Virus record (IMG/VR): IMGVR_UViG_3300027815_000008
Length of the DNA stretch: 64,000 bases
DNA from: an uncultured virus (IMG/VR IMGVR_UViG_3300027815_000008)
Lineage: Duplodnaviria > Heunggongvirae > Uroviricota > Caudoviricetes
Direction: 5' to 3' (one strand)
Made by a program: the position numbers and the translations under genes. The notes under the pieces are model-generated. The model searched no databases. It was given only the letters and a program-made list of their open reading frames with translations, and was not told the DNA's origin. Positions 2 through 20,620 of this stretch are shown piece by piece. The stretch's first letter is position 1. Every line of letters begins with the position of its first letter.

Positions 2-1210
2 TACGTGGAGATCGAGAACGAAGGTGTGGAAACGCTGCCGTCGGTAAAGGCCACGCCGGATATGCTATTCGGCATACAGCTACGCGACAAGCAGATAGAG
101 GCTATCGACAAGCTGGTCGAGGTCAAGCGCTGCATATTCGACGGGATCACCTCCTCCGGCAAGACCGAGGTGATGGCGGGTGTTATCAAAGCGCTGGGCA
201 TGCCCAAGACGCTGGTACTGATCAAGGGCATCCAGCTGATGAGCCAGACCGCCGAGCGTTTATCTCTACGCCTGCAGGCAGAGGTTGGCCTCATTCATGA
301 GGGCACAGCTGAGTTCGACGCGCAGGTTGTAGTGTGCTCTATTGACACGCTTGCACGCAGACTCGAAGATCAGAAATTCGCACGGTGGCTCGAGACGGAG
401 GTGAAAGTCGTCTTTGCGGACGAATGTCACCTGGTACCCGGCAAGACGTTTTCAACGTGTCTGGAAGCCGTTGGAGCCGCATACCGCTACGGCCTTTCTG
501 CCACAGCGCTTGACGTGGATAACCAGCTTGCCAACCTGACGCTGATAGGGCAGACCGGTGAGATCGCGGCACGTATCACTTTTCAGGACCAGATCCAACG
601 CGGCCTGATCGATATCCCGAACATCTTCTTCAAGACGGTGGGGGGATTCAACGAGCTAAAGCACCATGACAAGAATGATGACTACCTCTCGGCCTACAAC
701 GAGGGGGCTATCGAGCTGGGGCAAAAGAATGCCAGCATAGTAGACGACTGTCTGTGGTTCGCCGCGCATAAGCTGCCGACCCTAATCCTTGTGGAGAAGC
801 GGCGGCACGGACGGCTTATCCAGAGCAACCTGCAGGCGGCTGGCTTGCGCTCACGGTACATGGACGGCAACACCAGCGTTGATGCGCGGCGCGGTGCCGT
901 CAGAGAGTTCGCACGGGGGGTTCTGCAGGTCATTGTTACGACGCGCATATTCAACGTCGGGGTGGATATCCCGGCAATCAAGGCCATTATCCTGGCAGAC
1001 GAGGGCGTCACGCCCCGTAAAACCATTCAGCAGGTAGGTCGTGGGATGCGTATTACGCCGGGCCTGCCCAAGGTGTTGTACGTGCGGGACTACGTAAACC
1101 AGACCTGCCAATACTTGCTGGAGCACAGTCTTGCTCGGGTACGTGTGTACAAGGGCACGAAGGCGTACGTGGTGCACAAACGGGATACGCCGCTAAAGTG
1201 GGTCGCGTAA
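2..1210 (+). CDS. SF2 DEAD/DEAH-box helicase (UvsW/ResIII-like), 5'-truncated by the window
   Basis: Motifs DGITSSGKT (I), FADECH (II), LSAT (III), IFNVGVDIP (V), QQVGRGMR (VI); frame open to the window start. Confidence 0.9.
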   Translation, partial: YVEIENEGVETLPSVKATPDMLFGIQLRDKQIEAIDKLVEVKRCIFDGITSSGKTEVMAGVIKALGMPKTLVLIKGIQLMSQTAERLSLRLQAEVGLIHEGTAEFDAQVVVCSIDTLARRLEDQKFARWLETEVKVVFADECHLVPGKTFSTCLEAVGAAYRYGLSATALDVDNQLANLTLIGQTGEIAARITFQDQIQRGLIDIPNIFFKTVGGFNELKHHDKNDDYLSAYNEGAIELGQKNASIVDDCLWFAAHKLPTLILVEKRRHGRLIQSNLQAAGLRSRYMDGNTSVDARRGAVREFARGVLQVIVTTRIFNVGVDIPAIKAIILADEGVTPRKTIQQVGRGMRITPGLPKVLYVRDYVNQTCQYLLEHSLARVRVYKGTKAYVVHKRDTPLKWVA

Positions 1211-1227
1211 CGCAGGGAGAGGCAGCT

Positions 1228-1884
1228 ATGACGCAAGACGAGAAGAACATCGTGGCCCTCTCGCGGGCGTACTCCACTATGGTAGCGCGGTGCATCGGGC
1301 GGGAGTACCCAGCACTGGCCATACGCAACCCACGGGGGGACAAGAACTGGCGCTACTTTGAAAGCTTCTACTGCATGTTGAAGTACAAGGGCATCTGGGA
1401 TGAGCACGAGATATTTCTTGCTGCGCAGTTCGATAGCCTGCCGAGTAAGTTTCGCTTTCCCTACCCCAACATGCTCTACGGGTACACGGCCTGGTCGAAG
1501 TACGACGCGTACAAGGCAAAGCGTAAGAGGCGCATACCGGAGTCCGACTACAAGTCCGTACGCGCCGTGGGATACAAAGAAATATTCCTCGCATTCAAAC
1601 AGTCTGCCTACAACTTCCGAAAGTACCGCAGCTTCGGGTTCTCGAACTTCGAGATGTACAAACTATTCCCGGATCAATTCACGGTGTATTTCATTGCCGT
1701 TGACCCGGACGTACGCCTTCGGCTTAGCGGGGATAGTGACACCGATCGCTTCAGTCCTGCGGTCAAGAAATTCTACAAGAGGCTCTGTAACATGAGGTCT
1801 TTACGCGGCAAGCTCGACGCTCTTTGGCAAGAGCTCGTCACCAATCAGGGCGCTAACACTGGGCAGAGGGGGTCTAATGTCTGA
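1228..1884 (+). CDS. Hypothetical replication-associated protein
   Basis: ATG 1228 after GGGAGAGG; lies between the two helicases and overlaps the next gene. Confidence 0.7.
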   Translation: MTQDEKNIVALSRAYSTMVARCIGREYPALAIRNPRGDKNWRYFESFYCMLKYKGIWDEHEIFLAAQFDSLPSKFRFPYPNMLYGYTAWSKYDAYKAKRKRRIPESDYKSVRAVGYKEIFLAFKQSAYNFRKYRSFGFSNFEMYKLFPDQFTVYFIAVDPDVRLRLSGDSDTDRFSPAVKKFYKRLCNMRSLRGKLDALWQELVTNQGANTGQRGSNV

Positions 1885-3493
1885 GTCCGGGGAAGAGAAG
1901 CCCGAGAGCGATACCACGGAAGAGAAAAAAGGGAACGCGCCGACACACGCAGTAGAAGACTACACCCCCGACACCTACACGTACTCAAAGCCCTTCGTCA
2001 AGCGCATCTTGGCGATAATGGTGCAGGACCCCACCCTCCTTGCCAGCCATCGCCGTATTTTGCGGGCCGAGTATTTCGAAGACGTGCACCAGAGGGTTCT
2101 GGCCAACCTGATCCTCTCTCACTTTGATGAGCACTCGAGCACACCCGATTGGGGTGTGCTCGACAACTACGTGAAGAGCCACATCGCAGAAAATCCCAAT
2201 TATGGTGGTTCTGCGATACTCGAGAAACTCGCACGTAATATCTTCGAGCTGGCTGTTCTGGGGCAAGTGGGGCACATCAAGGCAGAGATAGTCATATTCG
2301 GCCGGCATCAAGCACTCAAGCGCATGTACATCGAGGGCTATGCCCGCCTGGGTCAGCCGGATGCTTTCGATACCGCCCTGGAGCATGTATTACAGGCTGT
2401 TGCTGTCGGTCAAGATGCCGATAAGTGCGGCACTGTCGTCTTCACGCCCGATGCGATCAAAGCACGCAGTATATGGCGTAAAAACTTCAAGGTACGGCGC
2501 GTACCTACTGGGTTGGCCGAATTGGATGAGAGACTTGATGGCGGTGGTGGGGGCGGTGAGGTTCTGATGCTTGTTGCGCCTACCAACTCTGGGAAGAGCA
2601 CGCTTGCCGTGAACATAGCAGTGGGGGCCGTCGAAGCCCGACGAAAGGCGCTGTACTACACGTTCGAGCAGAGCGCGAATAAGATAGGCACGAAGATGGA
2701 CTGCAAGGTTACAGGCAAGAACACATCCTGGTTACGCGCGCATAACTTCGAGGACGTATCTGCAGTGCCCGCGATGGCCAGGTTCATTCAGAACTATGAA
2801 CACAACATGGTGGTGGAGTGGTTCGAGCCGGATACCCACACGATCAACGACATTCGAATGAACCTGTCGGTGTGGAAGTCCAAGGGCTTCATCCCAGATG
2901 TTATCATCATAGATTCGCCGGATTACATGGTGCCTGCCGTACCAATTCGCGATGAGTGGCAGGCTCTGGGAAACATTTACAACGCGATCTTTACCCTGGC
3001 GAGTGAGCTGGACATCCCAATCTGGGTGACCAGCGACACAAAGCAATCCGCCTACGGTAAGGCGCAGACCTCCGTCAAGGACATTGGAAACTCGTACAAG
3101 AAGGCACGTAAGGTGGATGTGATTATAGCTGTAGGCGCTACCGAGCAGGAACACGCGGCAGGGTTCATCCGACTTTACCTGGCCAAGGTTCGAGATGGTG
3201 GTTCAAAGGGTCATCCTATCCTGGTGAACATGAACTGGGCTACGTCGTCGTGGACCACGGCCGTTACTCCTGAGGAGATGCTCGACCGCGTAAAGGAGTT
3301 CAAGGAGGCGCAGGATAAGCTGGACGGCCTCAATCATGCCGATGAGGCCATTATTGGTGCTGGCTGGAAGAGCCCAACAGAAGAGGCCGAAGAGGACGCA
3401 AAGAAGGCTAAGGCAGCGGCAAAGGCCGCGAAGAGGTTGGAGAAGCAGGCGGCTAAACCCCCCAATAAAGAGGAGGAGGTGGGCACGAATTGA
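1877..3493 (+). CDS. Replicative DNA helicase, DnaB/T4 gp41-like
   Basis: Walker A APTNSGKST, YYTFEQ, IIIDSPDYM, LYLAKVRDG; directly upstream of the primase. Confidence 0.88.
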   Translation: MSESGEEKPESDTTEEKKGNAPTHAVEDYTPDTYTYSKPFVKRILAIMVQDPTLLASHRRILRAEYFEDVHQRVLANLILSHFDEHSSTPDWGVLDNYVKSHIAENPNYGGSAILEKLARNIFELAVLGQVGHIKAEIVIFGRHQALKRMYIEGYARLGQPDAFDTALEHVLQAVAVGQDADKCGTVVFTPDAIKARSIWRKNFKVRRVPTGLAELDERLDGGGGGGEVLMLVAPTNSGKSTLAVNIAVGAVEARRKALYYTFEQSANKIGTKMDCKVTGKNTSWLRAHNFEDVSAVPAMARFIQNYEHNMVVEWFEPDTHTINDIRMNLSVWKSKGFIPDVIIIDSPDYMVPAVPIRDEWQALGNIYNAIFTLASELDIPIWVTSDTKQSAYGKAQTSVKDIGNSYKKARKVDVIIAVGATEQEHAAGFIRLYLAKVRDGGSKGHPILVNMNWATSSWTTAVTPEEMLDRVKEFKEAQDKLDGLNHADEAIIGAGWKSPTEEAEEDAKKAKAAAKAAKRLEKQAAKPPNKEEEVGTN

Positions 3494-4527
3494 GAAACCT
3501 GGATAACCTGGAACATTACCTGGAGGATACATTCGGGGCACCACAAGTCTATGAGGGTGGGGATGAACATGTGTACGACTGCCCTTTCTGCGAGGGCTCG
3601 CGCAAGCTGTGTATCAACCTCAAGAAGAGCGTCGTTCACTGTTGGACATGCCCGTTCGGGTCGTCTCTGGCCTATTTCATTGCCCGCTGGGAGAATGTCC
3701 CTGTTGCCCAGATAAAGGCCGCTCTGCGGGGGCGCCAGTTACTGGCGTTTCGTTACAAGAACATCCTGAAGGATGACGAGGACGGCGATGAGGAGCTAAT
3801 CAAGCCAACTGCGGTTGACTTGAGCTGGTGGACGGACGAGTTCCAGGACCCTCTCGTGCCGAAGACGCCCATGGGGCGTAAGGCGCGGGCATACCTCCTT
3901 GGAGACGACCGCAAACTCACCGAGGAACAGATATTCAGTTACCGCATCAGGTATGCGGAGAATGGGCGTTACCGGGGCCGTATCATGGTTCCGGTAATCG
4001 AGAAGGACGAGGTGGTTTACTTCGTCGCTCGTGACTTCTTGGGACGCGACCCGAAGAGGAAGTACCTGAATCCGAAGAACAACGAGGTCGGTAAGACCGT
4101 GGGTCAGGTTCTATTCAACTTTGAGCGTGCCAGTCAACATGACGTTGTGATACTGGTGGAAGGCGCGTTCGATGCTATGGCCGTGGGGGCTGACGCAATG
4201 GGTATCCTGGGAAAGGTGGTGACGCCGTCAAAACGCAAGAAGCTACAGGATGCTGGCGTAAAACGCCTTGTGGTGATGCTGGATAAGGACGTGTCGGCCA
4301 AGGAAAAGCGGGAGCTGCGTGAGGGTCTTACTGGGTGTTTCGAAGACGTTCGATGGGTCCACATCACCGGGGATAAAGATCCCGGTGCGCGTAGCTACGC
4401 TCAGAACCGCGAACTCATCCGGAAGGCTACAAGAATGGGATTGCAGATCCCAGGTGAAATAACCTTCCGCGGGTCGGCGTCTGTACTTGCTATCGTCAAG
4501 GGGGGAAGGCGAGATCGTGTCTGGTAA
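3490..4527 (+). CDS. DNA primase (Zn finger + TOPRIM)
   Basis: CPFC...HCWTC Zn finger, GRIMVPV, KYLN, LVEGAFDAM, MLDKD, KDPG. Confidence 0.9.
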   Translation: MRNLDNLEHYLEDTFGAPQVYEGGDEHVYDCPFCEGSRKLCINLKKSVVHCWTCPFGSSLAYFIARWENVPVAQIKAALRGRQLLAFRYKNILKDDEDGDEELIKPTAVDLSWWTDEFQDPLVPKTPMGRKARAYLLGDDRKLTEEQIFSYRIRYAENGRYRGRIMVPVIEKDEVVYFVARDFLGRDPKRKYLNPKNNEVGKTVGQVLFNFERASQHDVVILVEGAFDAMAVGADAMGILGKVVTPSKRKKLQDAGVKRLVVMLDKDVSAKEKRELREGLTGCFEDVRWVHITGDKDPGARSYAQNRELIRKATRMGLQIPGEITFRGSASVLAIVKGGRRDRVW

Positions 4528-4867
4528 GCGGAAACGTCCACAAAGTGTCGATGTTGACTTTGATGATGGGCAAGACGACTTGGATACGTATGAGGACTTA
4601 CTCGAGCCGGACTTGGACGAATTCATTAATTTCGACACGCTCAACCGGTTCTTCAAGACCATGTTCAGTGCGGAGCACATAGAGCGTACGAAGCCGCTAC
4701 CCTGGGCTTCATTAGGCCTGTCGGGGCCAGTGGACAGGGCTACGGCCTGTGCGGCCTACCGGAAGGCCTCTGCCGCGGCACACCCGGATCTCGGGGGGAG
4801 CCACGAGAAGATGGTGCAGCTGAATCAAGCGTGGGAACAGATCCAGCTGGAGATGGGCTGGGAATAG
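4517..4867 (+). CDS. J-domain (DnaJ-like) protein with acidic N-terminus
   Basis: AYRKASAAAHPDLGGSHEKMVQLNQAWEQI contains the HPD motif; GTG 4517 is the probable start. Confidence 0.8.
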   Translation: MSGKRKRPQSVDVDFDDGQDDLDTYEDLLEPDLDEFINFDTLNRFFKTMFSAEHIERTKPLPWASLGLSGPVDRATACAAYRKASAAAHPDLGGSHEKMVQLNQAWEQIQLEMGWE

Positions 4868-4884
4868 GTACCTGGAGGGATATT

Positions 4885-5397
4885 GTGAAGGTGTCCGAAA
4901 TCATTCGAAGGGCCCGGTCCGCACTCAGTATGCCTATCAAGTACAAAATGGGCTCTGGAGGCATGGATCCGACTGCAGCTTCTCCTGCAGGGGTAGACGG
5001 GGCATGTGACTGTAGTGGTTTCATCAGTTGGGTACTTGGGGTCTCCCGAAAGACAAAAGATCCGCTGTACCTGCGCGTTACAGGCGGCTGGCGCAATACC
5101 GATGGGATGGCCATAGACGCCAAAGAACCCGGGGGCATGCTGACGGTCATCCCTGGGGCACGCGTGGGCTGCCTGATGGTTTACGGCAAGGGCTGGCGGG
5201 GCGCTTATGTGGGCCATGTTGGCCTTGTGACGGATATATGGCCCCCGCCAGAGAATATGCCAGCTAATGCTCGGAGAGTTATTCATTGCGCTAGTGGGCA
5301 CAGGATTATGGGCAACGCAGTGCAAGAGACTGCCCCCGCAGCCTTCTTCAAACGAAACGCCATTTATGCCTGGCCTGACTTCCTCATCGAGGGTTAA
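4885..5397 (+). CDS. NlpC/P60 (papain-like) cell-wall hydrolase
   Basis: DCSGFISWV catalytic Cys, GHVGLV His, VIHCA; GGAGGG upstream of GTG 4885. Confidence 0.75.
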   Translation: MKVSEIIRRARSALSMPIKYKMGSGGMDPTAASPAGVDGACDCSGFISWVLGVSRKTKDPLYLRVTGGWRNTDGMAIDAKEPGGMLTVIPGARVGCLMVYGKGWRGAYVGHVGLVTDIWPPPENMPANARRVIHCASGHRIMGNAVQETAPAAFFKRNAIYAWPDFLIEG

Positions 5398-5435
5398 TCA
5401 GCCTCTAAGTACTTCGAAGTAAACTGGAGACCCAA

Positions 5436-6359
5436 ATGAATATCACCCAACCGTTTCTTGCTGCCAAAGACCCCGCTGAATCGGATCTCAAGTTCCCGTT
5501 GGCTGTCTCCGACAAGCGCGACGGTCTGAGGTGCATAGTGGGGGACCTACCACAGTACGGCCCCTGCGGTCTGAGTCGGAACTTTACTCCCACCCGCAAT
5601 AAGTACGTGGCCAAGAGCGTCGGAGAGCTCTTCCCCACGGACTTCGATGGTGAACTCCAGGTCAAAACTGAACGGGGTAAGGAGGCGGCCTTCAGGGATA
5701 CCGCTAGCGGCATACAGGCCTTCGAGGGAGAGCCCAATTACATATTTTCGGTTTTTGACTGGGGCTATAGCTTGACGGAACCCTACGAGCGCCGCGTGGA
5801 GAAGATCAAGCGCTGGTTCGATACTGAGGCTGGTCCCGAAGCCAGGCTCCATGGGGCCGTCCTGGACTTTACGATCGTAAAGAACATGGCCCAGCTCCTG
5901 ACCGCGGAGAGGAAGGCACTGGCAGCAGGGTTTGAAGGGCTGATCTTACGGGACCTTACCGGGGTGTACAAGTGCGGGCGCTCAACACTGCGGGAGGGGG
6001 GAATGATTAAGTGGGTGCGAAAGCAACGTTTTGAGTGCGCGGTGGTCGGCTTTGTAGAGGAGATGGCCAACAACAACGAGGCCCAGAAGAATCCGTTTGG
6101 CCGTACTAAGCGCTCCAGCGCCAAAGAGAATAAGACCGCGAAGAATAGGCTGGGGGCCCTCAAGGTCAAGATGGTAGAGGCGCCCCACACCGAGTTCGAG
6201 GTGGGTACGGGCTTCGACGCGACACTCAGGCAGCAGATTTGGGACGATCAAGATAGTCACCGCGGTTCGATCTGCACCATCGAAAGTCGACCCTATGGAG
6301 GCTACGACTTGCCCCGGTTCCCCGTATTCATAGCGTTCCGAGACCCTAGCGACATGTGA
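5436..6359 (+). CDS. ATP-dependent DNA ligase
   Basis: KxDG adenylation motif DKRDGLRC, FDGEL, FEGLILR, FEVGTGF, PRFPVF. Confidence 0.92.
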   Translation: MNITQPFLAAKDPAESDLKFPLAVSDKRDGLRCIVGDLPQYGPCGLSRNFTPTRNKYVAKSVGELFPTDFDGELQVKTERGKEAAFRDTASGIQAFEGEPNYIFSVFDWGYSLTEPYERRVEKIKRWFDTEAGPEARLHGAVLDFTIVKNMAQLLTAERKALAAGFEGLILRDLTGVYKCGRSTLREGGMIKWVRKQRFECAVVGFVEEMANNNEAQKNPFGRTKRSSAKENKTAKNRLGALKVKMVEAPHTEFEVGTGFDATLRQQIWDDQDSHRGSICTIESRPYGGYDLPRFPVFIAFRDPSDM

Positions 6360-6368
6360 GGGCAGAGC

Positions 6369-6878
6369 ATGGAACATGAGCGGTCCAACTTCTTCTTGAA
6401 CCTCAAGGAGTACATCTGGCAGTTCTGGTGGTACTTCCGACAGTGGTGGCGCCGCGAGCCACATCTGATAGTCGGTAGCTTAGGAACTGTCTACCTGCAC
6501 CGTTGGTGGCTGATTCCTCGCAACCCTATCTTCAACGCGTACGCGCACCTCTTCATCAGCCCGGATGAGGATCGGGCGCTCCACGACCATTCTTGGGTGT
6601 CCCTCTCAATCGTATTGCGAGGGTCGTACATGGAGCTCACAGAAACCACCAAGCAGCACGTTATGCAGCGGAGGGCGTTTGGACCAGGCTCTATCATCTT
6701 TCGTTGGCCCACGTGCGCACACAGAATAGACCTCTATCCGGAGGAGGCGTCGGGGAAGTTCAAGCCGGTGTGGACACTGTTCTTGACAGGACCGAAGTGG
6801 CGAGAGTGGGGCTTCCTGTGTCCGCAGGGCTGGGTCCACTGGCGCAAATTCATGAGGCAGGACGGGTGCGGATCATGA
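6369..6878 (+). CDS. Cupin-like phage protein
   Basis: DEDRALHDHSW...SIVLRGSYME...HRI...WTLFLTGPKWREWGF pattern. Confidence 0.6.
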   Translation: MEHERSNFFLNLKEYIWQFWWYFRQWWRREPHLIVGSLGTVYLHRWWLIPRNPIFNAYAHLFISPDEDRALHDHSWVSLSIVLRGSYMELTETTKQHVMQRRAFGPGSIIFRWPTCAHRIDLYPEEASGKFKPVWTLFLTGPKWREWGFLCPQGWVHWRKFMRQDGCGS

Positions 6879-7525
6879 AAAAGAAACTCGGGTACGTGAT
6901 CATCTTTGAGGCGAGTAAGTTGGTGGAAGACCCAGGTCCGGTCGAGCCTTCGGTTGAGCGTCTGGGCCGCACGGGGCACGAGAAAGAACGCCTCAAGGCC
7001 ATCGAGGGTCAGATCGCCTTACGGGCCGAAACATATGGACCCGAACGTCGTCGTGGGGACCCAATCATTTCCTGGAGCAAAGAAGGCGCGGGTCCGCACC
7101 GTATTCAGGTCAAGGTGTTGGTACAGGTAGAGTTTCCTCCGCTCAAGGCCTAGGTGGGGAGCATGATCCTGCACTTCCAACCAGACTGGGGCCTACAGGC
7201 TCATGGTGCTCAACCCGATGGTAACGCCGCTTGTGGCGTGTGGGGGACGGTCACACGAGAAACTAACGCGGTGAACTGCCGTAAATGCTTCAAGAGCCCC
7301 GACTTCAAACGGGCCCACCACGCTACGTTGGTCAAGATCGAGGCAGAGAATGCGCACTTGACCTTGTTGGTGTTCAGCGGCATTGATCCGAAGCTCTTCG
7401 ACAATAACATCGAAGAGATCAAAGCCGACCTGGAGAAGTCCGGGCTGTTGAAAGCCGCAGAGAGGCTGAAGTTCGAGGTTAGAGACAGGGTCAGCAAGCT
7501 CAAGAAACGGACAGGGCAAGTTTAG
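6875..7525 (+). CDS. Two hypothetical proteins (6875-7153 and about 7163-7525)
   Basis: ATGA overlap at 6875; contiguous with the operon. Confidence 0.55.
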
Positions 7526-7703
7526 GGGGCGTATCGATGTGGCGCTGCAAATGGTGTTCGTTGACAGATCTATGGGGACCAGACGAGACCGACGGGACAC
7601 ACGAGATGCATGAGGCCATTCATACCCTGGCGGAAAGTATTTTTAGTCATGGGACACATGAGAACCGTGACGAGATAAAGAAGCTCACGGAGGTGTCGGA
7701 GAA

Positions 7704-8576
7704 ATGAGCATCACTAGCAAAATTATCGCCGACTCAGTCAACCCCTGGGGTATACGGCTCACCAGTTTCATCCTAACGTACTCTCGGTACATTCATAGTG
7801 AAATTGGGACCCACAGGGTCTTCAGCCGTAGTTCTGCCAGCTCCCGGGCTATCCCCTTCAAGAAGTCCGTGGAGGCCGTGATGACAGATCCGGCAATCCC
7901 GGTCCAATGGGGGGTCACTGCTCGGGGCATGCAAAGCAAGACTTCTCTTGAAGGAGATGCTGCGGAACAAGCCCGGGCAGCTTGGCTTTCGGCCAGGGAT
8001 GACGCTGTAAAGAACGCTGAAGCTATCTTCGAGAAGCACAAGCTTCACAAGCAGCTGATCAACCGCTTGTTAGAGCCGTGGGCACACATGACCACACTAC
8101 TCACAGGGACGGAGTTTCATAACTTCTTCGCGCTGAGAGCTAGCCCGGAAGCCCAACCTGAATTCGCAGCCCTGGCTTTCAAAATGCTTTCCAGATACCT
8201 GTCCTCCACTCCCAAGCAGCTGGCTTGGGGCGGATACCATGTACCTTTTGGGGATCGAACCGAAGGCTTGGATATGGGCATACAGCTCAAGGTGGCCACA
8301 GCCAGAGCTGCCCGGGTGTCGTATCTGACGTTCGAGGGTGATGCCTCCGTCGAGGATGACTGCCGGTTACATGACCAGCTCTTGGAGAGCGGGCACATGT
8401 CTCCATTTGAGCACGCAGCCCAAGCTAAGCAAGATGCCACACCATCCAACTTCGGGGCTCATTCGGGCTGGAATCAATATCGCAAGCAATTCCCATTAGA
8501 GACCAAGAGAGACGTGGACTTGAAAGCAATCCTGGCCACCAAACCCTCATGGATTGATCTCGAAGATGGAGAGTAG
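7704..8576 (+). CDS. thyX: Flavin-dependent thymidylate synthase
   Basis: HSEIGTHRVFSRSSASSRAIP, HKQLINRLLEP, NFFALR, ARVSY, HMSPFEH; phage-type ThyX. Confidence 0.9.
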   Translation: MSITSKIIADSVNPWGIRLTSFILTYSRYIHSEIGTHRVFSRSSASSRAIPFKKSVEAVMTDPAIPVQWGVTARGMQSKTSLEGDAAEQARAAWLSARDDAVKNAEAIFEKHKLHKQLINRLLEPWAHMTTLLTGTEFHNFFALRASPEAQPEFAALAFKMLSRYLSSTPKQLAWGGYHVPFGDRTEGLDMGIQLKVATARAARVSYLTFEGDASVEDDCRLHDQLLESGHMSPFEHAAQAKQDATPSNFGAHSGWNQYRKQFPLETKRDVDLKAILATKPSWIDLEDGE

Positions 8577-12400: not shown

Positions 12401-15400
12401 CTTGGCCAGGTGCGCAGAGGCTACCGAAGGGCCGTGGAACTACAACACCTCCGGCAACGGCATCGCCCACACTGGAGGTCGATGGCTGGCTTGGGTGTCT
12501 CAGTCAATGAATCAGCAGCGCCCGTCTGCCATGGACAACCCGGGCGACCAGGCTTTCATCGCCCACGCCCGCACCGATTTGCCCAGGCTGGCGAATCTCG
12601 TATATTGCATAGCGGATAGCCCGTGTGAGCATCCTGACGCAGATCCTGGTCGAGACCAGGGGGATAGGTGCTGGCCATGCTGCGTGCGTGCGCAGATCGC
12701 CCAATGGGAGGAGAAATGACCGACGAGCGTTGCGTGAAGAAGAGAGAGGCCTGCACTAGATGCCACACTGGAAAAGCCGAGGATCAATGCGCCCGCTGTG
12801 AGTCGTGGATCTGCTTTGATCACGTCTACGTCCGTGGCGAGGGCGACAACATAAGCGAAGAACTGTACTGCATCGATTGCGTCAATGAACACGACGACCC
12901 CGAATAAATCGGGATGGATGGATGAAAGGCTTAAAGGAAAGCGATGCCCCACGACCCAGACAGGGAGGCCCGTATCAGGCGGATCGAGCGAGAGTTTGAT
13001 CCGTCGGCCGACCGCGACAGTTCGTACCTCCTCGCCATCATCGACGAGCTGCGCAACAAGACGGAGAGGCTTGAATCCGAGCAAAAGTGTCGCAACCGGC
13101 GGGCAGCACGTGTCGGCGAGCTGGAGATCGCACTCGACGACATGGTCAAGGAGGCCATCCGACTGCGACTAGAGCGTGAGGGGGAGAAGGCATGACCGAA
13201 CGCGAGGTGCACCTCCGCCAGAACGTAGGGCAAAACCGATACGTCGCTGGCATGTTGGACATGGACTACCTCCTCGCCATCATCGACGAGTTGCGGGCAG
13301 AGAACGAGGCGCTCCGGCACCGGCAGCCTGACGCATACGACCCAAACCTGACGCTATACGCCGCCCAGATGCACGCGCCGAAGAAGGAGGAGGCATGAAC
13401 CATCTTGAAGTACTTGATATATACATCCTAAGCGCTCCGACTGATACCCAGCGGTGGGAGAGGCGGCACGCCACGTTTGTGCGGGCGCGTCGAGCACTCG
13501 GGTGGACGTTCATGGGCCCCGCCGACACGATTCGCCACGCGTTACGCATCGCTTATGCGCTCGCGTACAAAGAGCCGGATCAGGACATCAGCCTAGAGAT
13601 GTACGATCGGGGGGTGTGAAGCCCATCAGACCCCTTGTAAGGGAAGGTGAAGACACCATGACCCACGACCAAAACTTTGACCCGTGCACATGGTGCACGC
13701 ACCCTCGAATGCGGCACATGCGCATCATGGGCTGCTACGGCTCGTCCTGGTGCATGGAGTGCCTATGCATGATGTTTGGGGAGGCAGAGATGCCTGAGAC
13801 CCAGACGGGAGATGAGAGATGACCCTCGACTGGCGCAGCGAGCCCCCAGAGAACGCCGGAGGCCAGCAGGCCGGCGTCCGTCCGATGCGCTACCGATGCC
13901 AGAGATGTGGCAGGCTCACGGACTACTGCCCACGCGACATGTCACAGAGGTCGTTCCTGGACGCTCAACTGCCGTGTTCCGGGGCGCCCAGCTGCCAGAT
14001 TACAGGGGAGGAGTTCTAATGGCGAGACCAACGAAACCAGGCCACGTGCGATACCGCGCCATGTATTCAGTTTGGGCCTCGTGCTGGGTTGAGTTCGACG
14101 CTCCGGTAGATGCCTCCGTCGAGGAGCTCAAGAGGGTCGCTGAGTCTCGCATTGATACGCCATCCGTGTGTCACGAGTGCAGCGGCGACGTTGAGATCGG
14201 AGAGCTCGACGAGATGCAGGAGATAGTGCGGTTACCGAATGGTCAATCGACCTGGGACAACACGCACGGGGAATACTGTGCGGTCTGTGGGGGGCAATTA
14301 GACGGCAAGGGCGTGTCAATGGGGAATCGCCGGGTGCACAAAAAATGCCAACCGTGACCGCCAAGACTGAGGAGGTATCCAATGAAGCGCCTACACTGGT
14401 GGGTCGTGATGAGCGGAGACCGCTTGGGGCTTCTCCTGGTGTGTGATACACCCTGGCCAAGCTATCGCACGGCCGATGTTTGTGTGCGGGACATCCAGAG
14501 TAAGGAGGAGTACAAGCATACGTTTTGGATCGTACAAGCTGCGACCAAGGAAAACGCCATAAAGCGGGTGTCCGATGGAGAACCTGCTGTGAGGTTGAGA
14601 TGATCCGCATAACGATGCGCTCCTGGTGGGAGTGTTGGGCCGTGCAGGTCTGGCTGTATCACGATGGGGCCGTGTTCTCACGATGTCGGCCTTGGTACTC
14701 GATAAAACCGTCGGGGTACGCCAAGAAGAGGGTACTTGGCCCTGTAACCACCACGGCGAAAAGAGAGGGTTGAGGTGTGTGAACCTGATTGTAAAGTGCT
14801 CGGAGCACGACAAGGCGCTGCAGATAGCAGACGAGAACGCAACGACCCACTACCGAGAAGTGGCCGTAACGCTGAGCGTCGTGCCCTGTTCAATGTGTAA
14901 GGACGAACACAAGGCAGCACTTCATGAGGCGGTTACTGACGCCGTCGAAGCCGAACGTGAGAAAGGAGCCCAGCTGTGAGTCAAGTAGCCCTTGCATACG
15001 AGAAGCACGGGCTTCGTGTGTTAACTGCGGGAGGCGGGAAGCCAACACTCCCTGTCATGATGAAGCTGATCCAGGAACGCCTGGATCAGGGCTGGTATGA
15101 GGACGAGGACGCTGAGAAGGCAAGAAAGCTTCTGGAGACTATTCCCAGAAACGAGTCTGCCCAGAAACTCGCAGAGCGGGCCTGGGCGTTTCTCAGGTCC
15201 CGCAACAGAGCAGAGTACGAACGCATTGAGATCGTGGAGGTCGAAGCGTAATGTCCAGGAAGCCTGGGGGGGTACACGCCTGGGGGAACGATTCCCCCAG
15301 GCCATTGAACTCCGATACGGCTGTCACAGCATGTGGCCTGAAGCCGGTTAGGCAGTTTACGTATAACAAGAAAAAGGTGAACTGCAAGTTATGCGCAGGT

Positions 15401-15595
15401 CGTAACGCAAAGGATGCTGTCTGGCCCCAGATATTGGTGTGGGATTGCTGCAAAGACGGCGGGGGAATGGTTCGATATCACATCAAGTACAAGATGTTTG
15501 TCCTGGCACACGGGATGTTTGTTGCAGTCAAACACTGCCCGTGGTGCGGAGTGAGGTTGGAACTTTCAAAGGAAATAAAACGGCTTTTGGCCTGA
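9439..15595 (+). other. Dense cluster of about 22 small overlapping hypothetical ORFs, many Cys-rich; includes Ead/Ea22-like genes at 10180-10419 and 12372-12719
   Basis: Tiled ORFs with RTGA overlaps and GGAG SD sequences (e.g. 9439, 9717, 10407, 10670, 11296, 11870, 12169, 12944, 13192, 13395, 13819, 14019, 14382, 14976, 15251); ATEGPW...AFIAHAR motif in 12372. Confidence 0.7.
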
Positions 15596-15702
15596 GGAGA
15601 GACAATGATCCTGTTCGTAACGTTTATCGGGGCGTTTATAGGTGCATTATTCGGGGCCTGGCTTTTCAGCAGATAGCCGGGCCAACTTGAAAAGGAGGAA
15701 CA

Positions 15703-16002
15703 ATGTTTCGTCAGGGAGATGTGTGGATAGTGCCGTGTGACGCTACGGAAATCCCAACGGACGCCGCGTTGGTGGGGCATTGCATCGTGGCTCGTGGTGA
15801 AGCCACCGGACACATGCACCGGATAGAAAAGGGGGCCAAGCAGTACGCTACCCCCTCCGGGCAGCAGTGGATCAAAGTGTTCCGTGCCAAGGTAGAGCTA
15901 CTGCACCAGGAACACTCGGCCGTTGTGCTGTTGAAAGGCACATACCGAGTGATTCATCAGAGGGAGTATTCGCCTGAGGGGCTGAAGGGTGTCATCGACT
16001 GA
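15703..16002 (+). CDS. RQGD-motif small protein, recalled as the usual neighbour of DUF6745 genes
   Basis: MFRQGDV...GEATGHMHR...LHQEH...GTYRVIHQREYSP; strong SD AAGGAGG. Confidence 0.8.
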   Translation: MFRQGDVWIVPCDATEIPTDAALVGHCIVARGEATGHMHRIEKGAKQYATPSGQQWIKVFRAKVELLHQEHSAVVLLKGTYRVIHQREYSPEGLKGVID

Positions 16003-16025
16003 CACGAGGACTGAAGCCTCTTCAA

Positions 16026-16055
16026 GGAGGGCGCCTTTTTGGTGCCCTCCTTTTT
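16026..16055 (+). terminator. Intrinsic terminator
   Basis: GGAGGGCGCC-TTTTT-GGTGCCCTCC stem followed by TTTTT. Confidence 0.75.
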
Positions 16056-16102
16056 CGTTCGCTGATCCAGTATCTGGGCAGGCTCTGCCCAGGAGGCCGC
16101 TA

Positions 16103-17138
16103 ATGAAGGTGGGGAATCAGGTCATGGACCAAGTCGGGAACCGGGTTAGGGTCCAGGTCAGGGTCCAGATCTGGGACCAGGTCAGGGACCAGGTCGGGGA
16201 CCAGGTCCGGGAGGACACTCGATGAAGATAGGGCGACAGGTCAGTGACCAGATAGAGGACCAGGTCTGGGTCCAGGTCAGGGTCCAGGTCTTGGGCCAGG
16301 TCTGGAACCAGGTCTGGCTCCAGGTCTTGGGCCAGGTCAGGGACCAGGTCGGGGACCAGGTCTGGAGCCAGGTCAGGAACCAGGTCAGTGCCCAGGTACA
16401 GGAGGACGTCCAATGAAAGTGGGGGACCAGGTCTGGGAACAGGTCAGGGACCAGATCAGGGGCCGGAGTAGGGACCAGGTATGGGGCCAGGTATGGGGCC
16501 AGGTCTGGGACCAGGTCTGGGACCAGGTCTGGGACCAGGTCAGGGACCAGGTCGGGGACCAGGTCTGGGGCCAGATCAGGGAGGATGCCGAATGAAGGTA
16601 GGGGATCAGGTGGGGGATCAGGCCAGGGACCAGATCAGGGACCAGATCAGGGGCCAGAGCAGGGACCAGGTGTGGGCCCAGGTCGGGGACCAGGTATGGG
16701 GCCAGGTATGGGGCCAGGTCAGGGTCCAGGTCGAGGGCCAGGTCTGGGACCCGGTCTGGAGCCAGGTCTGGGAACAGGTCAGTGCCCAGATCGAGGAGGA
16801 CACTGAATGAAGATTGAAAGAAAGGTGGGGCACCGGCTTGGGGCCCAGATCGGGGACCAGGTACGGGGCCAGGTCGGGGCCCAGGTCGAGGGCCAGATCT
16901 GGAACCAGGTCAATTCCCAGGTCTGGGAACAGGTCTGGGACCAGGTCGTGATCCATGTCTGGGACCAGGTCATCGACCAGGTCGGGGTCCAGGTCAGTGC
17001 CCAGGTACAGGAGGACGTCCAATGAAAGTGGGGGACCAGGTCAGTGCCCAGGTCAGGGTCCAGGTCGAGGGCCAGGTCAGGGACCAGGTCTGGAGCCAGG
17101 TCTGGGAACAGGTCAGGGAGGGCACAAAACGGGGATAA
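16103..17138 (+). repeat. Array 1: six coupled QVxx tetrapeptide-repeat mini-genes (16103-16225, 16222-16416, 16413-16595, 16592-16810, 16807-17025, 17022-17138)
   Basis: 12-nt unit CAGGTCnnnnnn; each ORF starts MK[VI], internal ORFs end [RQE]EDxx and overlap the next by ATGA. Confidence 0.9.
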
Positions 17139-17202
17139 GGTGCCAACGCTCTGAACATAGTCAAGCAGTGCGAGGGGCTCTACTGGCCCCGAAGGAGAGC
17201 AG

Positions 17203-18132
17203 ATGATCAACGAATTGACCAAAGAGCAAGAGGCCATGATCCCGATCATCCGGGACGAGTGGCTGGCACATGGGCTCAGCACATCTCCCGCAGACAGGGC
17301 CCAGGCCGAAACGGGCGTCAAGCTGGCCTACGAGGCGGCAGGCCTCAAGCCCCCCATGACCATCATCTGGGCTCAGAGCCCGGTGCATGGTGGTTACTTG
17401 AAGGCCGCCATAAACGACAGCGACATGGATGTGTCGGTGCCGCTGACCCCGGAACAGGTCGAAACCGCGCTCGACCTGGCCGCACGTGCAGTTCTGGGCG
17501 AGATCAAACTGCAGTACGACAGCTGCAGCGCATTCGGCGCCCACGACGCCGGGTACTCAAGCTTTTACGACTTTTGGGGTCGGGCTTGTGCGTTGGCCTG
17601 TGTGGACCGCCTGAAAGGGCTGTTGATGCTGAACAAAAGCGCAGGCTGGTGGTGGGCCTACGAGACCGTGTGTGTGATCTCGGAGCGGCACAACGTGCTG
17701 CACCGAGACGAACAGGGCCGGTTGCACTGCCCCGACGGACCAGCCGTTGCGTACCCGGACGGCTGGCCCGTCTACGCTTGGCATGGCGTGCGAGTACAGG
17801 CCAACGTGATCCTGAAGCCCCAGGAGCTCGAACCCATCAAAGTGCTCCAGGAGGTCAACGCTGAAGTCAGGCGTGTCATGATCGAACGCCTGGGGATGGA
17901 GCGGATCGCCAAGGAAACAGGAGCACAGGTGATCGCCAAGGACGAGAAGGGCGAGCTTCTGCGCATCGAGCTGACGGGTGATGAGCCGCTCTTGATGGTG
18001 CATGTCATATGCCCCTCCACCCAGCGGGAGTACTACCTGCGGGTGCCCCCCACCATGACCACGGCAAAAGAGGCCGTAGCGTGGACGTTCGGGCTGACGG
18101 CGGACCAGTACAACCCCCGTGTGGAAACCTAG
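17203..18132 (+). CDS. DUF6745-like protein
   Basis: LTKEQEA...W...GLSTSPADR...SP...GAHDAGY..FYDF...GWWW...SERH...DEQGRLHCPDGPAVAYPDGW.VYAWHGVRV...NAEVRRVMIE...CPSTQREYYLRVPP...EAVAWTFG. Confidence 0.82.
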   Translation: MINELTKEQEAMIPIIRDEWLAHGLSTSPADRAQAETGVKLAYEAAGLKPPMTIIWAQSPVHGGYLKAAINDSDMDVSVPLTPEQVETALDLAARAVLGEIKLQYDSCSAFGAHDAGYSSFYDFWGRACALACVDRLKGLLMLNKSAGWWWAYETVCVISERHNVLHRDEQGRLHCPDGPAVAYPDGWPVYAWHGVRVQANVILKPQELEPIKVLQEVNAEVRRVMIERLGMERIAKETGAQVIAKDEKGELLRIELTGDEPLLMVHVICPSTQREYYLRVPPTMTTAKEAVAWTFGLTADQYNPRVET

Positions 18133-18166
18133 GAGGCTTTTGGAGTTAGGGAATGGAGAAAACCCA

Positions 18167-19464
18167 ATGAAGATAGGGGGCCAGGTCAGGAACCAGGTCT
18201 GGGACCAGGTCTGGGACCAGGTCTGGAGCCAGGTCAGGGAGGACGCCAAATGAAGATAGGGGGCCAGGTCATGGTCCAGGTCGGGGGCCAGGTCAGTGCC
18301 CAGGTCTGGAACCAGGTCTGGGGCCAGGTCAGGGACCAGGTCAGGGACCAGGTCTGGGACCGGGTCGAGGACCAGGTCTGGGACCAGGTCTGGAACCAGG
18401 TCATGGACCCGGTCGAGGACCAGGTCAGGAGCCAGGTCAGGGAGAGCACGAAATGAAAATAGGGCGACGGGTCAGGGTCCAAGTCGGGGACCAGATCTGG
18501 GGCGAGATCAGTGGCCAAATCTGGGTCCAGGGCAGTGCCCAGGTCAGTGGCCAGGTCAGGGACCAGGTCTTGGCCCAGGTCATGGCCCAGATCTGGGGCC
18601 CGGTCAGGAACCAGATCTGGGACCAGGTCAGTAGCCAGGTCGAGGAGGACACGAGATGAAGATTGAGGAACAGGTCTGGGTCCAGGTCAGGGTCCAGGTC
18701 AGGGACCAGGGCTGGATTCAGGTCTGGGACCAGGTCAGGGGCCAGGTCTGGGACCAGGCCATGGACCAGGTCAGGGTCCAGGTCTTGGACCAGGTCAGGG
18801 GCCAGGTCGAGGAGGACACGATATGAAGGTTGAATACCAGGTCAGGGGCCAGGTATGGGTCCAGGCACGGGTCCAGGTCAGGGTCCAGGTCGGGGACCAG
18901 GTCTGGGAACAGGTCAGTGCCCAGGTCGGGGCCCAGGTCTGGCACCAGGTCATGGCCCAGGTCATGGCCCAGATCTTGGAGGACACGAGATGAAGGTCAG
19001 GGACCAGGTCTGGGAGGACGCCAAATGAAGGTCGGAGGCCAGATAACTAGACAGGTCATGGACCAAGTCGGGAACCGGGTTAGGGTCCAGGTCAGGGTCC
19101 AGATCTGGGACCAGGTCAAGAACCAGGTCAGTGCCCAGATCAGTACCCAGGTCATGGACCAGGTCTGGGACCAGGTCAGGAACCGGGTCAGGAACCAGAT
19201 CTGGGACCGGGCCGAGGACCAGGTCTGGGACCAGGTCAGGGAGGACGCCAAATGAAGGTAGGGGATCAGGTGTGGACCCAGGTCAGGGACCAGGTATGGG
19301 GCCAGGTCGAGAGCCAGGTCTTGAAGCAGGTCAGTGCCCAGGTCTGGAACCAGGTCAGGGACCCGGCCTGGATTCAGGTCAGCGTCCAGATCATTCCCCA
19401 GGTCAGGGGTCAGATCTGGAGCCAGGTCATGGGTCAGATCTGGGAGGACACCCGGGAAGGTTGA
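18167..19464 (+). repeat. Array 2: eight coupled QVxx mini-genes (18167-18253, 18250-18456, 18453-18659, 18656-18826, 18823-18993, 18990-19028, 19025-19255, 19252-19464)
   Basis: Same architecture as array 1; several members are missing from the ORF track and were translated by hand. Confidence 0.9.
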
Positions 19465-19497
19465 AAACCAGGCCCGCACTATGCCCACGGTAATGTG

Positions 19498-19505
19498 GGT
19501 ATAAG
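19498..19505 (+). promoter_or_regulatory. GGTATAAG putative phage promoter element
   Basis: Intergenic, about 40 nt before ATG 19547; the motif recurs before other + strand units. Confidence 0.55.
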
Positions 19506-19546
19506 CAAAAGCACAGTAAATTCAACTGACCTGAAAGGAGGCCCCT

Positions 19547-20375
19547 ATGGGGGTCACGTACAAGTACAGTATCCGAATCATGACTATGCCCAACCTGGGC
19601 GACGGCTACCGGGGGATCGTTCCGGAAGCCGTCAGGACAGCCTTGCGGTTCCGGGATGGGGACGACTACGAGGGGTGGTGGGAGTCCATGGACACCTATG
19701 TGTACGACGGGGAGAGCTGTGATACCCCCGAGGAGGTCCAGGCAAACATCCTGGAAAAACTCTGGGAGGCGTCGGCAGGTTTCGTCGCAGTCACCGTTAC
19801 CTCCCATAGGGTCACCACCGAAGATGCCGTGGTGACCTCAATCCTCGACAACGACGTCGGGGCGTACGGGAAGGCCCTCGAAGAAGAGGCCGAACGGGCT
19901 ATCAACAAAGGAGAAGAAAATGCCCACCAGTGACTTGAAGAATGCCGTAGACGCCCTGATCGGGGTGGCCGAATGGGCCATCGATCAGGGAGGGGCCAAG
20001 GACTCCATCGGGGCCATCATACGCCTTGCCCGCAAGCAGGTAGCGGCTGTGGACAAGGCAGCCCGGGGGGACGCCAGGCCCCCTCTCAAGACCTGCAAAG
20101 AGTACAAGGGCTGGACTGCCCTGTACTACACGCCTAGGGGTCTTCCCTACGAGGGGAGGGTCAGCACCCTCAGGGACGCCAGGAACGCCCACGCCATCTT
20201 CAAGGTTGGCAGGGCTACAGTGCTGTTCAAGAAGTCCCGGCTGGCGCACCCAAAGACCCTGACCATCGCAGCGGCCTATCAGCTGTACCGGTGGAACTTC
20301 AGGAAGGCCCCTGTAGCGGAAGAAAGTAGGCTGCCGTGGAGGACGACGCCAACCACTGGAAAGAAGGGGCGATAA
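19547..20375 (+). CDS. Two hypothetical proteins (19547-19933, 19920-20375)
   Basis: SD AAGGAGG and AAGGAG; overlapping ORFs. Confidence 0.65.
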
Positions 20376-20377
20376 CA

Positions 20378-20620
20378 GTGGCCTGGCTCGTGTATATCCT
20401 GTGCTGCGGGGACGGGACGCTCTACACCGGCATCACGGTCGATGTAGAGGCCCGTCTGGCGGCCCATAGACGGGGCAAGGGTGCCAGGTACACCCGGGGG
20501 CGGGGGCCGCTGCAGCTCGTCTACCTGCGGCGTGCCCGGGACTATTCGGATGCCCTCGGGTGGGAGGCCGACATCAAGCGGCTGTCTCGAGCGGCAAAAC
20601 TGGACTTGATCTCCAGTTAG
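20378..20620 (+). CDS. Small GIY-YIG nuclease (UPF0213-like)
   Basis: WLVYILCCGDGTLYTGIT...RLAAHRRGKGARYTRGRGP...E.DIKRLSR. Confidence 0.88.
   Translation: MAWLVYILCCGDGTLYTGITVDVEARLAAHRRGKGARYTRGRGPLQLVYLRRARDYSDALGWEADIKRLSRAAKLDLISS

Follow-up and report, generated by a model that had tools for sequence, protein, structure and literature searches.

The 64,000-nucleotide (nt) stretch analyzed here, hereafter the window, is DNA of an uncultured virus (IMG/VR record IMGVR_UViG_3300027815_000008; Duplodnaviria, Heunggongvirae, Uroviricota, Caudoviricetes) and carries on its plus strand, at positions 15703 to 19464, a locus in which a gene of the DUF6745 family lies between two arrays of short open reading frames (mini-ORFs) built from a four-residue repeat (Table 1). 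Array 1 comprises six mini-ORFs (16103-17138) and array 2 eight (18167-19464), together 14 that sum to 780 amino acids (aa), and a small gene on the same strand, RQGD, is found 1.2 kb upstream of the DUF6745 gene, with a hairpin and the six mini-ORFs of array 1 intervening. These coordinates confirm the gene order given by a first-pass annotation of the letters alone (RQGD, terminator, six mini-ORFs, DUF6745, eight mini-ORFs), including the count of eight downstream mini-ORFs, with the correction that one of them is only 12 aa long. As set out below, comparison with relatives indicates that the repeat is the DUF6745 family's own internal module and not a new element; what is new here is the recognition of the repeat as such a module and of its detachment, in split loci, as arrays of mini-genes.

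Table 1. Coordinates of the features of the locus within the window.
Feature	Position	Strand	Evidence or remark
RQGD partner gene, 99 aa, starts MFRQGD	15703..16002	+	phrog_27831 match, AlphaFold2 (AF2) model
Terminator-like hairpin, 12-bp stem, 8 G-C pairs, then T run	16024..16052	+	consensus scan
mini-ORF 1, 40 aa	16103..16225	+	own AGGAGG 6 nt before ATG
mini-ORF 2, 64 aa	16222..16416	+	ATGA overlap
mini-ORF 3, 60 aa	16413..16595	+	ATGA overlap; peptide docked on core in complex model
mini-ORF 4, 72 aa	16592..16810	+	ATGA overlap
mini-ORF 5, 72 aa	16807..17025	+	ATGA overlap; head most diverged of all (MKIERKVGHRLG)
mini-ORF 6, 38 aa	17022..17138	+	end of array 1; tail EGTKRG
DUF6745 core gene, 309 aa, without internal tetrapeptide tract	17203..18132	+	PF20530, phrog_31813
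mini-ORF 7, 28 aa	18167..18253	+	start of array 2; GGAG 8 nt before ATG
mini-ORF 8, 68 aa	18250..18456	+	
mini-ORF 9, 68 aa	18453..18659	+	sole junction with GGGAGAG in place of GGAGGA
mini-ORF 10, 56 aa	18656..18826	+	
mini-ORF 11, 56 aa	18823..18993	+	
mini-ORF 12, 12 aa, only three units	18990..19028	+	
mini-ORF 13, 76 aa	19025..19255	+	67-nt identity with mini-ORF 1
mini-ORF 14, 70 aa	19252..19464	+	end of array 2; tail enters decayed junction without ATG

Mini-ORF architecture and coding evidence

All 14 mini-ORFs are built throughout of four-residue units of the form x-Q-[VI]-x. Each begins with MK[VI] and no two of the peptides are the same, just as the annotation had described; its third generalization, an EDxx-like tail, applies to 12 of the 14, the remaining two ending in ES and EG variants. 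Head (M-K-[VI]-x) and tail (E-D-x-x) are themselves modified units, and the length is a multiple of 4 aa in 12/14 mini-ORFs, the exceptions being the final ORF of each array. At all 12 internal junctions the stop and the next start overlap as ATGA, so that the gene unit measures 12k-1 nt, and at 11 of these 12 a GGAGGA, encoded by the 'ED' tail of the preceding gene, lies 6-7 nt before the ATG. Tandem Repeats Finder reported a 12-nt period in 83.9 and 99.5 copies (matches of 70% and 66%, respectively) together with higher-order periods of 191, 203, and 167 nt; the rest of the 64-kb window holds no second array of this kind, and a DNA pattern for this phage's junction gave 0 matches in viral_contigs. 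A stretch of 67 nt is identical between mini-ORF 1 (16118-16184) and mini-ORF 13 (19052-19118), which lie 2.9 kb apart in direct orientation with the DUF6745 gene between them, which points to a recent duplication, or to exchange, from one array to the other.

The consensus 12-mer is free of stops in all six frames, and the absence of stops alone is therefore little evidence of coding. Over 166 body units, the QV frame contains 0 stops where 4.8 are expected (P of zero = 0.006, under a simple null in which the 12 unit positions vary independently), as compared to 4 and 6 stops in the other two plus-strand frames and 0, 8, and 68 in the antisense frames. The annotation had taken the lack of premature stops as a mark of selection on the peptides; the zero itself stands, but given the six open frames of the 12-mer it carries only modest weight. 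Within the unit it is mostly nt 2 and nt 10 that vary (majority base 0.49 and 0.44, respectively), a second and a first codon position, and the third codon positions are 0.88-0.97 fixed. At the protein level, the residue after Val is mostly W (54) or R (46), followed by G (16), S (15), E (11), and M (10), and the position before Gln holds D (58), G (28), V (19), A (17), or N (14). Stronger evidence of coding than the missing stops comes from relatives that carry the same motif in frame (see the next section). Matches of the mini-ORFs to DUF4816 remained below threshold (16.8-25.8 bits, cut-off 29.4) and were judged to be low-complexity noise.

The internal tract of DUF6745 proteins and its split loci

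Profile searches of the 309-aa and 99-aa proteins, which the annotation had proposed, were productive for both. Residues 112-309 of the core match positions 11-206 of the 206-position profile PF20530 (E 2.6e-59; 200.4 bits, cut-off 27), and the core also matches phrog_31813; the RQGD protein matches phrog_27831 (E 2.7e-12). The columns that define the core (W20, G24, S59-P60, G112-x-HDA-x-W, GRLH, and a C-terminal ET) are invariant or at least 90% conserved in an alignment of 32 sequences (A1), and the window protein, which is 40-52% identical to its best matches, has all of them. Altogether, 1328 DUF6745 proteins were found at E up to 1e-10.

Within the 309-aa core of the window no period-4 run is present; in alignment A1 it has a non-repeat linker at the very site where relatives hold a repeat tract. 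For example, gp38 of the Mycobacterium prophage prophiGD102-1 contains a run of about 50 Q-L-[WRG]-[GD] units, and a DUF6745 protein of Caudoviricetes sp. MW202476 (UOF77368) contains 29 S-S-L-[RGEW] units. Such a tract is present in 58 of 122 DUF6745 proteins, where it lies between the N-domain and the YGQHDA motif (beginning near residue 70-90 and ending just before YGQHDAxW) and consists of units x-[Q/S/N]-[V/L/I]-[W/R/G]. The mini-ORF arrays read in the same frame as this internal tract and, since the repeat appears to be the internal tract of the family, the window locus represents a split form of it.

How widespread the two arrangements are was surveyed in 177 fetched loci with a DUF6745 relative, to which the window was added; they comprise at most 80 per scan and include near-duplicates (L175/L176, L059-L065), and 149 of them have a complete ORF of at least 250 aa. 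With our own simple finder of period-4 runs and first-start ORF calls, these 149 divide into 70 loci with an internal tract only, 59 with no tract whatever, 14 with same-strand external repeat ORFs and no internal tract, and 6 with both. The runs in these last six are small, save in L177, whose external run belongs to a second, diverged DUF6745-like paralogue (L177:1539-2927; 462 aa) that has its own internal tract and lies on the same viral contig 3 kb upstream of the main copy. External repeats of at least 100 aa occur in 11 loci (the window, L132, L134, L142, L151, L153, L154, L155, L156, L175, and L176), and in 11/11 of these the internal tract is absent. Large free-standing arrays beside a repeat-less DUF6745 gene are thus found in ten loci other than the window, which bears out the linkage that the annotation had anticipated. 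Its proposal of a new system of mini-genes is accordingly to be divided: the arrays are upheld, but the repeat itself, present as an internal tract in the 70 loci just mentioned, is not new.

The split loci are unpublished phage contigs from IMG/VR with guanine-plus-cytosine (G+C) contents from 0.34 to 0.71. Their ORFs of about 50-90 aa follow the pattern x-[QS]-[VIL]-x, are often chained by ATGA overlaps (L153, L155, L132), and most commonly have W and R after Val. Heads and tails differ from locus to locus (MKLKSVxxQV...KTLHQ in L153, MKSLRxQV...NALI in L155, MIDPGxCV...SLEEE in L132), and the 'LEEE' tail in L132 likewise encodes the next Shine-Dalgarno sequence. Other lineages encode the pattern with different DNA, and it is thus kept at the protein level. 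In L134 (5-958, 1638-2072, 2935-3408), (N-S-V-x)n ORFs with lengths from 144 to more than 317 aa are joined to the core gene on both sides by stop/start overlaps, an arrangement that looks like an intermediate between the fused and mini-gene forms.

Judging from the trees, the split loci do not form a single clade. A FastTree tree of 137 cores requires 9 changes of the split state, at least 6 of them forced by starred branches; with an IQ-TREE tree of 51 cores the number is 8, and the approximately unbiased test rejects a common clade (log-likelihood difference 413, p 4.8e-07; the group tested was named after the first tree seen). The window core stands alone on a long branch, with fused forms as its nearest tree rows.

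These comparisons also bear on whether the arrays might be the decaying by-product of an unstable 12-nt repeat that was broken by 1-nt deletions, leaving functionless peptides. Units of 12k-1 nt are what a 1-nt deletion in a periodic tract would produce, the consensus 12-mer is open in six frames anyway, the higher-order repeats and the 67-nt identity between the arrays show ongoing recombination, and the mini-ORFs do not appear in the protein collection searched (see below). However, every break is furnished with an in-frame ATG and a Shine-Dalgarno sequence (12/12 ATGA, 11/12 GGAGGA), though matches in the repeat bodies reach just 66-70%; the core gene is intact, with the arrays on either side of it and not within; stops are missing from the QV frame against the expectation given above; and other lineages with different sequences and junctions share the design. 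We consider mere decay improbable.

Structure models, the RQGD partner, and the genomic setting

The fused relative P0012 was modeled with AF2 at an overall predicted local distance difference test (pLDDT) of 88.1, with 97-98 in its core, and its tract is helical in this model (H79-99, H102-122, H125-164). A Foldseek search against the PDB (E up to 0.001) left the fused DUF6745 model unmatched, the core alone not being searched, and the one match of a PDB sequence search with P0012 (its repeat versus a Plasmodium surface protein) was judged to be due to chance.

Modeling of DUF6745 with each peptide had been put forward in the annotation and was carried out for one of the 14, mini-ORF 3, which does dock: placed on the window core, it reached an interaction prediction score from aligned errors (ipSAE) of 0.70 (0.71, 0.63, and 0.70 in the individual runs) versus 0.03 for the best of three controls. 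In the calibration of the tool, 116 of 157 solved complexes attained this mark, as did 2 of 215 mismatched pairs; with a user-supplied alignment, such figures are only approximate. In the docked models the partner has a pLDDT of 72-77, and at least 80% of the contacts are shared between runs. The contacts of lowest error join V31, V35, V39, and V43 of the peptide, which are the invariant Val of four successive units, to W20, G24, L25, P60, H114-Y117, R173-L174, and A181-V182 of the core; mini-ORF 3 also touches the core with its Q and W positions, and the Asp position (33, 37, 41, 49) is not listed. As a prediction, the complex model supports binding of this one mini-protein to the core.

Action of the mini-proteins without the core, be it as a self-assembling Q/W-rich polymer or coat, as condensate formers, or as free decoys for a host defence protein, is in our estimation likewise improbable. 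W/R-rich helices of low complexity could conceivably self-associate. Nevertheless, free-standing arrays of at least 100 aa occur only beside repeat-less cores (11/11 loci), docking on the core is far above the controls, and the locus sits among replication and early genes, not structural genes. For the polymerising coat, one of the functions suggested in the annotation, nothing speaks in favour, and it is unsupported because the locus lies in the early/replication region and the cassette is also found in bacterial chromosomes (see the end of this section).

A same-strand RQGD homologue accompanies DUF6745 in 113 of the 177 loci, and none is found on the opposite strand; the RQGD gene is thus, as far as this co-occurrence goes, the constant partner of DUF6745 that the annotation saw in it. 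In 69 of the 113 loci its distance from the DUF6745 ORF, as delimited by our script, is at most 150 nt on the upstream or 400 nt on the downstream side; most of the other 44 overlap starts that the script placed too far upstream, and a few are kilobases distant. G5, D6, G36, H37, H39, H68, H71, and D99 are invariant among 63 sequences (alignment A2), and the resulting pattern G-D...G-H-x-H...H-x-E-H...D suggests a metal site. The family is large, with 9276 cluster representatives found by its profile at E up to 0.001. AF2 predicts a small all-beta protein (pLDDT 89.5), for which Foldseek returned no match in the PDB at E up to 0.001; a cupin fold, suspected from the HxH...HxxH pattern, received no support. 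The name PF31129 for the RQGD family comes from the output of the ESM Atlas as its sole source. Among the clusters that the Atlas lists is a viral one of 366 aa that joins an RQGD-like part to DUF6745; this fusion was not confirmed, as the 76 candidates examined included no RQGD homologue of greater length at E up to 1e-5, and all of the top 150 profile matches measure 98-183 aa.

The combination of numerous short, variable ORFs rich in Trp with two conserved proteins that have invariant His and Asp residues (H37, H39, H68, H71, D6, and D99 in RQGD; H114 and D115 in DUF6745) also recalls ribosomally synthesized and post-translationally modified peptides (RiPPs): the mini-proteins would be multi-core precursor substrates modified by DUF6745 and RQGD, and the fused relatives would be self-modifying. 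Both fused and split arrangements of DUF6745 occur, and borosin RiPPs are likewise found in fused and split forms. Neither the scans of the locus with Pfam, PHROG, NCBIfam, and PADLOC nor the Pfam scan of 48 neighbour ORFs revealed, however, a leader-like region, a protease, a transporter, or any known family of RiPP enzymes; the tract of the fused proteins is mid-chain and not terminal; the complex model sets the constant face of the peptide, and not a single residue, against the core; and the RQGD and fused DUF6745 models match no solved enzyme fold (the core alone was not searched). A RiPP-like pathway is on balance highly improbable. Most improbable of all is that the DNA or RNA repeat is itself the functional element (as protein-binding sites, a host-nuclease decoy, or a structured RNA) with incidental frames: about 180 copies of the 12-mer containing GACCAGGTC, high G+C and a strong GC skew, and the near-palindrome GACCWGGTC in every unit (ACCWGGT and CCWGG being restriction or methylase sites) might invite this reading, but relatives keep x-[QSN]-[VLI]-x at G+C 0.34-0.71 with other codons (CAAGTC vs CAGGTC; AGC-CTC for S-L), so it is the protein level that is conserved.

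As to its surroundings, the window is phage DNA, and the cassette lies in the early/replication region: plus-strand positions 5-8576 hold a phage replication module according to PHROG (two helicases, a DnaB-like helicase, a primase, an ATP-dependent DNA ligase, and a thymidylate synthase), and most large minus-strand ORFs beyond 22 kb are without a PHROG match. Downstream of the locus, a 94-aa ORF (20336-20620) likewise lacks a PHROG match and resembles, by its motif, a GIY-YIG nuclease domain. No transfer RNA genes were found, nor any sigma-70-like promoter in 15000-20000. In the protein collection, the core protein is entered on a contig of 195,674 bp. The stretch is contained in two groundwater DNA runs (X1, X2), both of them possible sources, which are probably one data set filed twice because their contig pieces and depths are identical; no RNA run was among the matches listed. 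The contigs of these two runs held no variants, and copy number could not be read from them since the unitigs break inside the arrays.

The cassette also occurs in bacterial chromosomes, in varied surroundings that are in part prophage-like, and Pfam revealed no conserved neighbour besides RQGD among 48 ORFs chosen from 86 in 11 bacterial loci; such variety without a fixed neighbour is, as judged from these contexts, the behaviour of a mobile accessory gene. Two genomes each contain many near-identical copies of RQGD and DUF6745, namely a metagenome-assembled genome (MAG) of Marinacidobacterales (L059-L065 and L050) and a Dehalococcoidia MAG (L045, L046, L055), and a multi-copy mobile element may be what carries the cassette. 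In L060 the cassette precedes an HNH gene and a very long ORF whose domains include SpvB, TcdB-mid, and RHS-repeat; in L045, it stands between primase-like, DUF5131, and DNA methylase genes.

Proposed mechanism and comparison with known systems

The explanation that we find best overall, and reasonably probable, is that the locus is a split form of a two-gene RQGD and DUF6745 accessory cassette whose mini-proteins act in trans. The window core would have lost its tract, which would instead be encoded as 14 mini-proteins (12-76 aa) in two arrays flanking the core gene; from the sequence comparisons it is very probable that the mini-ORFs are real translated genes detached from the tract. Their ATGA layout is that of termination-reinitiation coupling, by which all peptides would be made in roughly equal amounts. 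Going by the models, each mini-protein would be helical, and its constant Q-V face would lie in a groove that the N-domain and the HDA helix of the core make up, presumably the place adjoined by the internal tract in fused relatives, and such docking in trans is slightly favoured on the complex modeling. Because the mini-proteins would fit this groove by their invariant Q-V face, one core could take any of the 14 inserts, and the 14 versions would compete for it. The annotation had pictured diversified peptides acting with one scaffold; of this, a diversified family linked to DUF6745 and RQGD is borne out, and one peptide has been modeled on the core.

The function of the assembly is a matter of analogy. 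It might act in phage-host conflict, for instance in counter-defence or host take-over, with the variable residues setting the target, and the RQGD partner with its four invariant His might supply a metal-dependent or other constant activity. That the mini-proteins serve as a conflict or specificity library is a tentative suggestion, on the doubtful side. The fullest version of the idea, a trans-assembled combinatorial recognition in which the core and a metal-binding partner are armed by 14 fast-evolving helical inserts in equal amounts, as a standing specificity library against host defence or target proteins that was reached several times independently by fission of a repeat tract, must be called unlikely.

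Several observations weigh against the trans-acting split form or its parts. On the side of the coding evidence, one antisense frame is as free of stops as the QV frame, and the stop test uses a simple null; the regularity of the junctions within the window is not independent evidence, since the junction could have arisen once and then been copied with the higher-order repeat. Furthermore, the mini-ORFs are not in a collection of 5.8 billion proteins, where a query with mini-ORF 5 returned only P0123, a free-standing Q-V repeat ORF of 87 aa on a 39.6-kb contig of the Joint Genome Institute (JGI). As none of the 14 is in the collection, gene callers evidently miss sets of small genes, and they seem to miss or mis-frame arrays such as these. 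On the side of the models, the P0012 tract has a pLDDT of just 47-56 over residues 81-130 and 72-79 over 131-160, which makes the helical tract a prediction of low to middling confidence; one of the 14 mini-proteins was docked, with a partner folded without an alignment, and the docking result may echo a learned intra-chain packing of the fused proteins. Additionally, the predicted terminator-like hairpin stands between the RQGD gene and array 1, PADLOC assigned 0 families to the 8 proteins scanned, and NCBIfam gave nothing relevant. The core apparently works without a tract, as 59 of the 149 complete loci have neither an internal nor an external one; since it can do without, the tract would modulate the function and not create it. 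Finally, gp54 of phage Tweety, from which a role in conflict is borrowed, shows no homology to DUF6745 (against alignment A1, hhalign gives it a probability of 0.16%, and it has no Pfam family), and this role is thus an analogy only; searches by tblastn with the window core and with prophiGD102-1 gp38 did not find Tweety either.

Beyond the individual locus, the cassette of RQGD and DUF6745 ranks among the larger accessory cassettes of phages, prophages, and bacteria that have not been studied. The split loci can be regarded as a natural dissection, in which the variable tract proves separable and many versions of it are maintained side by side, and they predict that tract and core make contact through the constant Q-V face. 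The annotation's remark that the architecture is undescribed agrees with the literature searched, in which no published description and no mention of DUF6745, PF20530, PF31129, phrog_31813, or phrog_27831 was found; on phage tetrapeptide repeats it offered the work on Tweety only, and nothing on the DUF6745 family.

Closest to the window are the fused DUF6745 proteins themselves (prophiGD102-1 gp38, MW202476 UOF77368, P0012, and P0013), which share with it a homologous core, the RQGD partner, which is directly adjacent in their loci, and the same or a closely related motif, [DA]-[QS]-V-[WRG], in the same frame. They differ in that their tract forms a single in-frame insert with as many as about 50 units, whereas the window has 14 genes with their own starts, stops, and ribosome-binding sites. 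The other split loci resemble the window in their repeat-less core, same-strand free-standing repeat ORFs, and ATGA chaining, but have other heads and tails and another G+C, in the case of L134 long ORFs instead of mini-ORFs, and are not united with the window on the core tree. The pentapeptide-repeat proteins were considered and rejected as a relative: the period here is 4 aa (12 nt), no pentapeptide Pfam family was matched at E up to 0.1, and the tract is predicted to be helical, not beta-helical.

Among phage proteins outside the family, variable region 2 of bbp36 in Bordetella phage BMP-1/BPP-1, an accessory gene, consists of variable-number short tandem coding repeats (cited in PMC2884959); as described there, it differs from the window in being a 24-bp element within one gene. 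Of the analogues, only Tweety gp54 has been studied; its 48 A-A-[GWQ]-[SY] units are encoded by a 12-bp coding repeat with two fixed and two variable positions (including G/W), in which the first and second codon positions vary, the third is fixed, and the number of repeats differs between phages, according to the passages of PMC2884959 that deal with it. Gp54 (together with Che8 gp57 and PMC gp51) resembles the window in its 12-bp repeat, its first- and second-codon variation, and its fixed third positions; unlike the window, it is a single fused protein with the motif A-A-[GWQ]-[SY], without an RQGD partner or a mini-gene array. A review (PMC9262239), in its section on this system, relates that Tweety escapes the defence by Phrann gp29/gp30 via an altered repeat number, the tract thus tuning counter-defence. 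If this analogy holds, the split loci would represent a new route by which phages diversify counter-defence, and, were combinatorial recognition to prove true, a protein-level counterpart of shufflons or diversity-generating retroelements.

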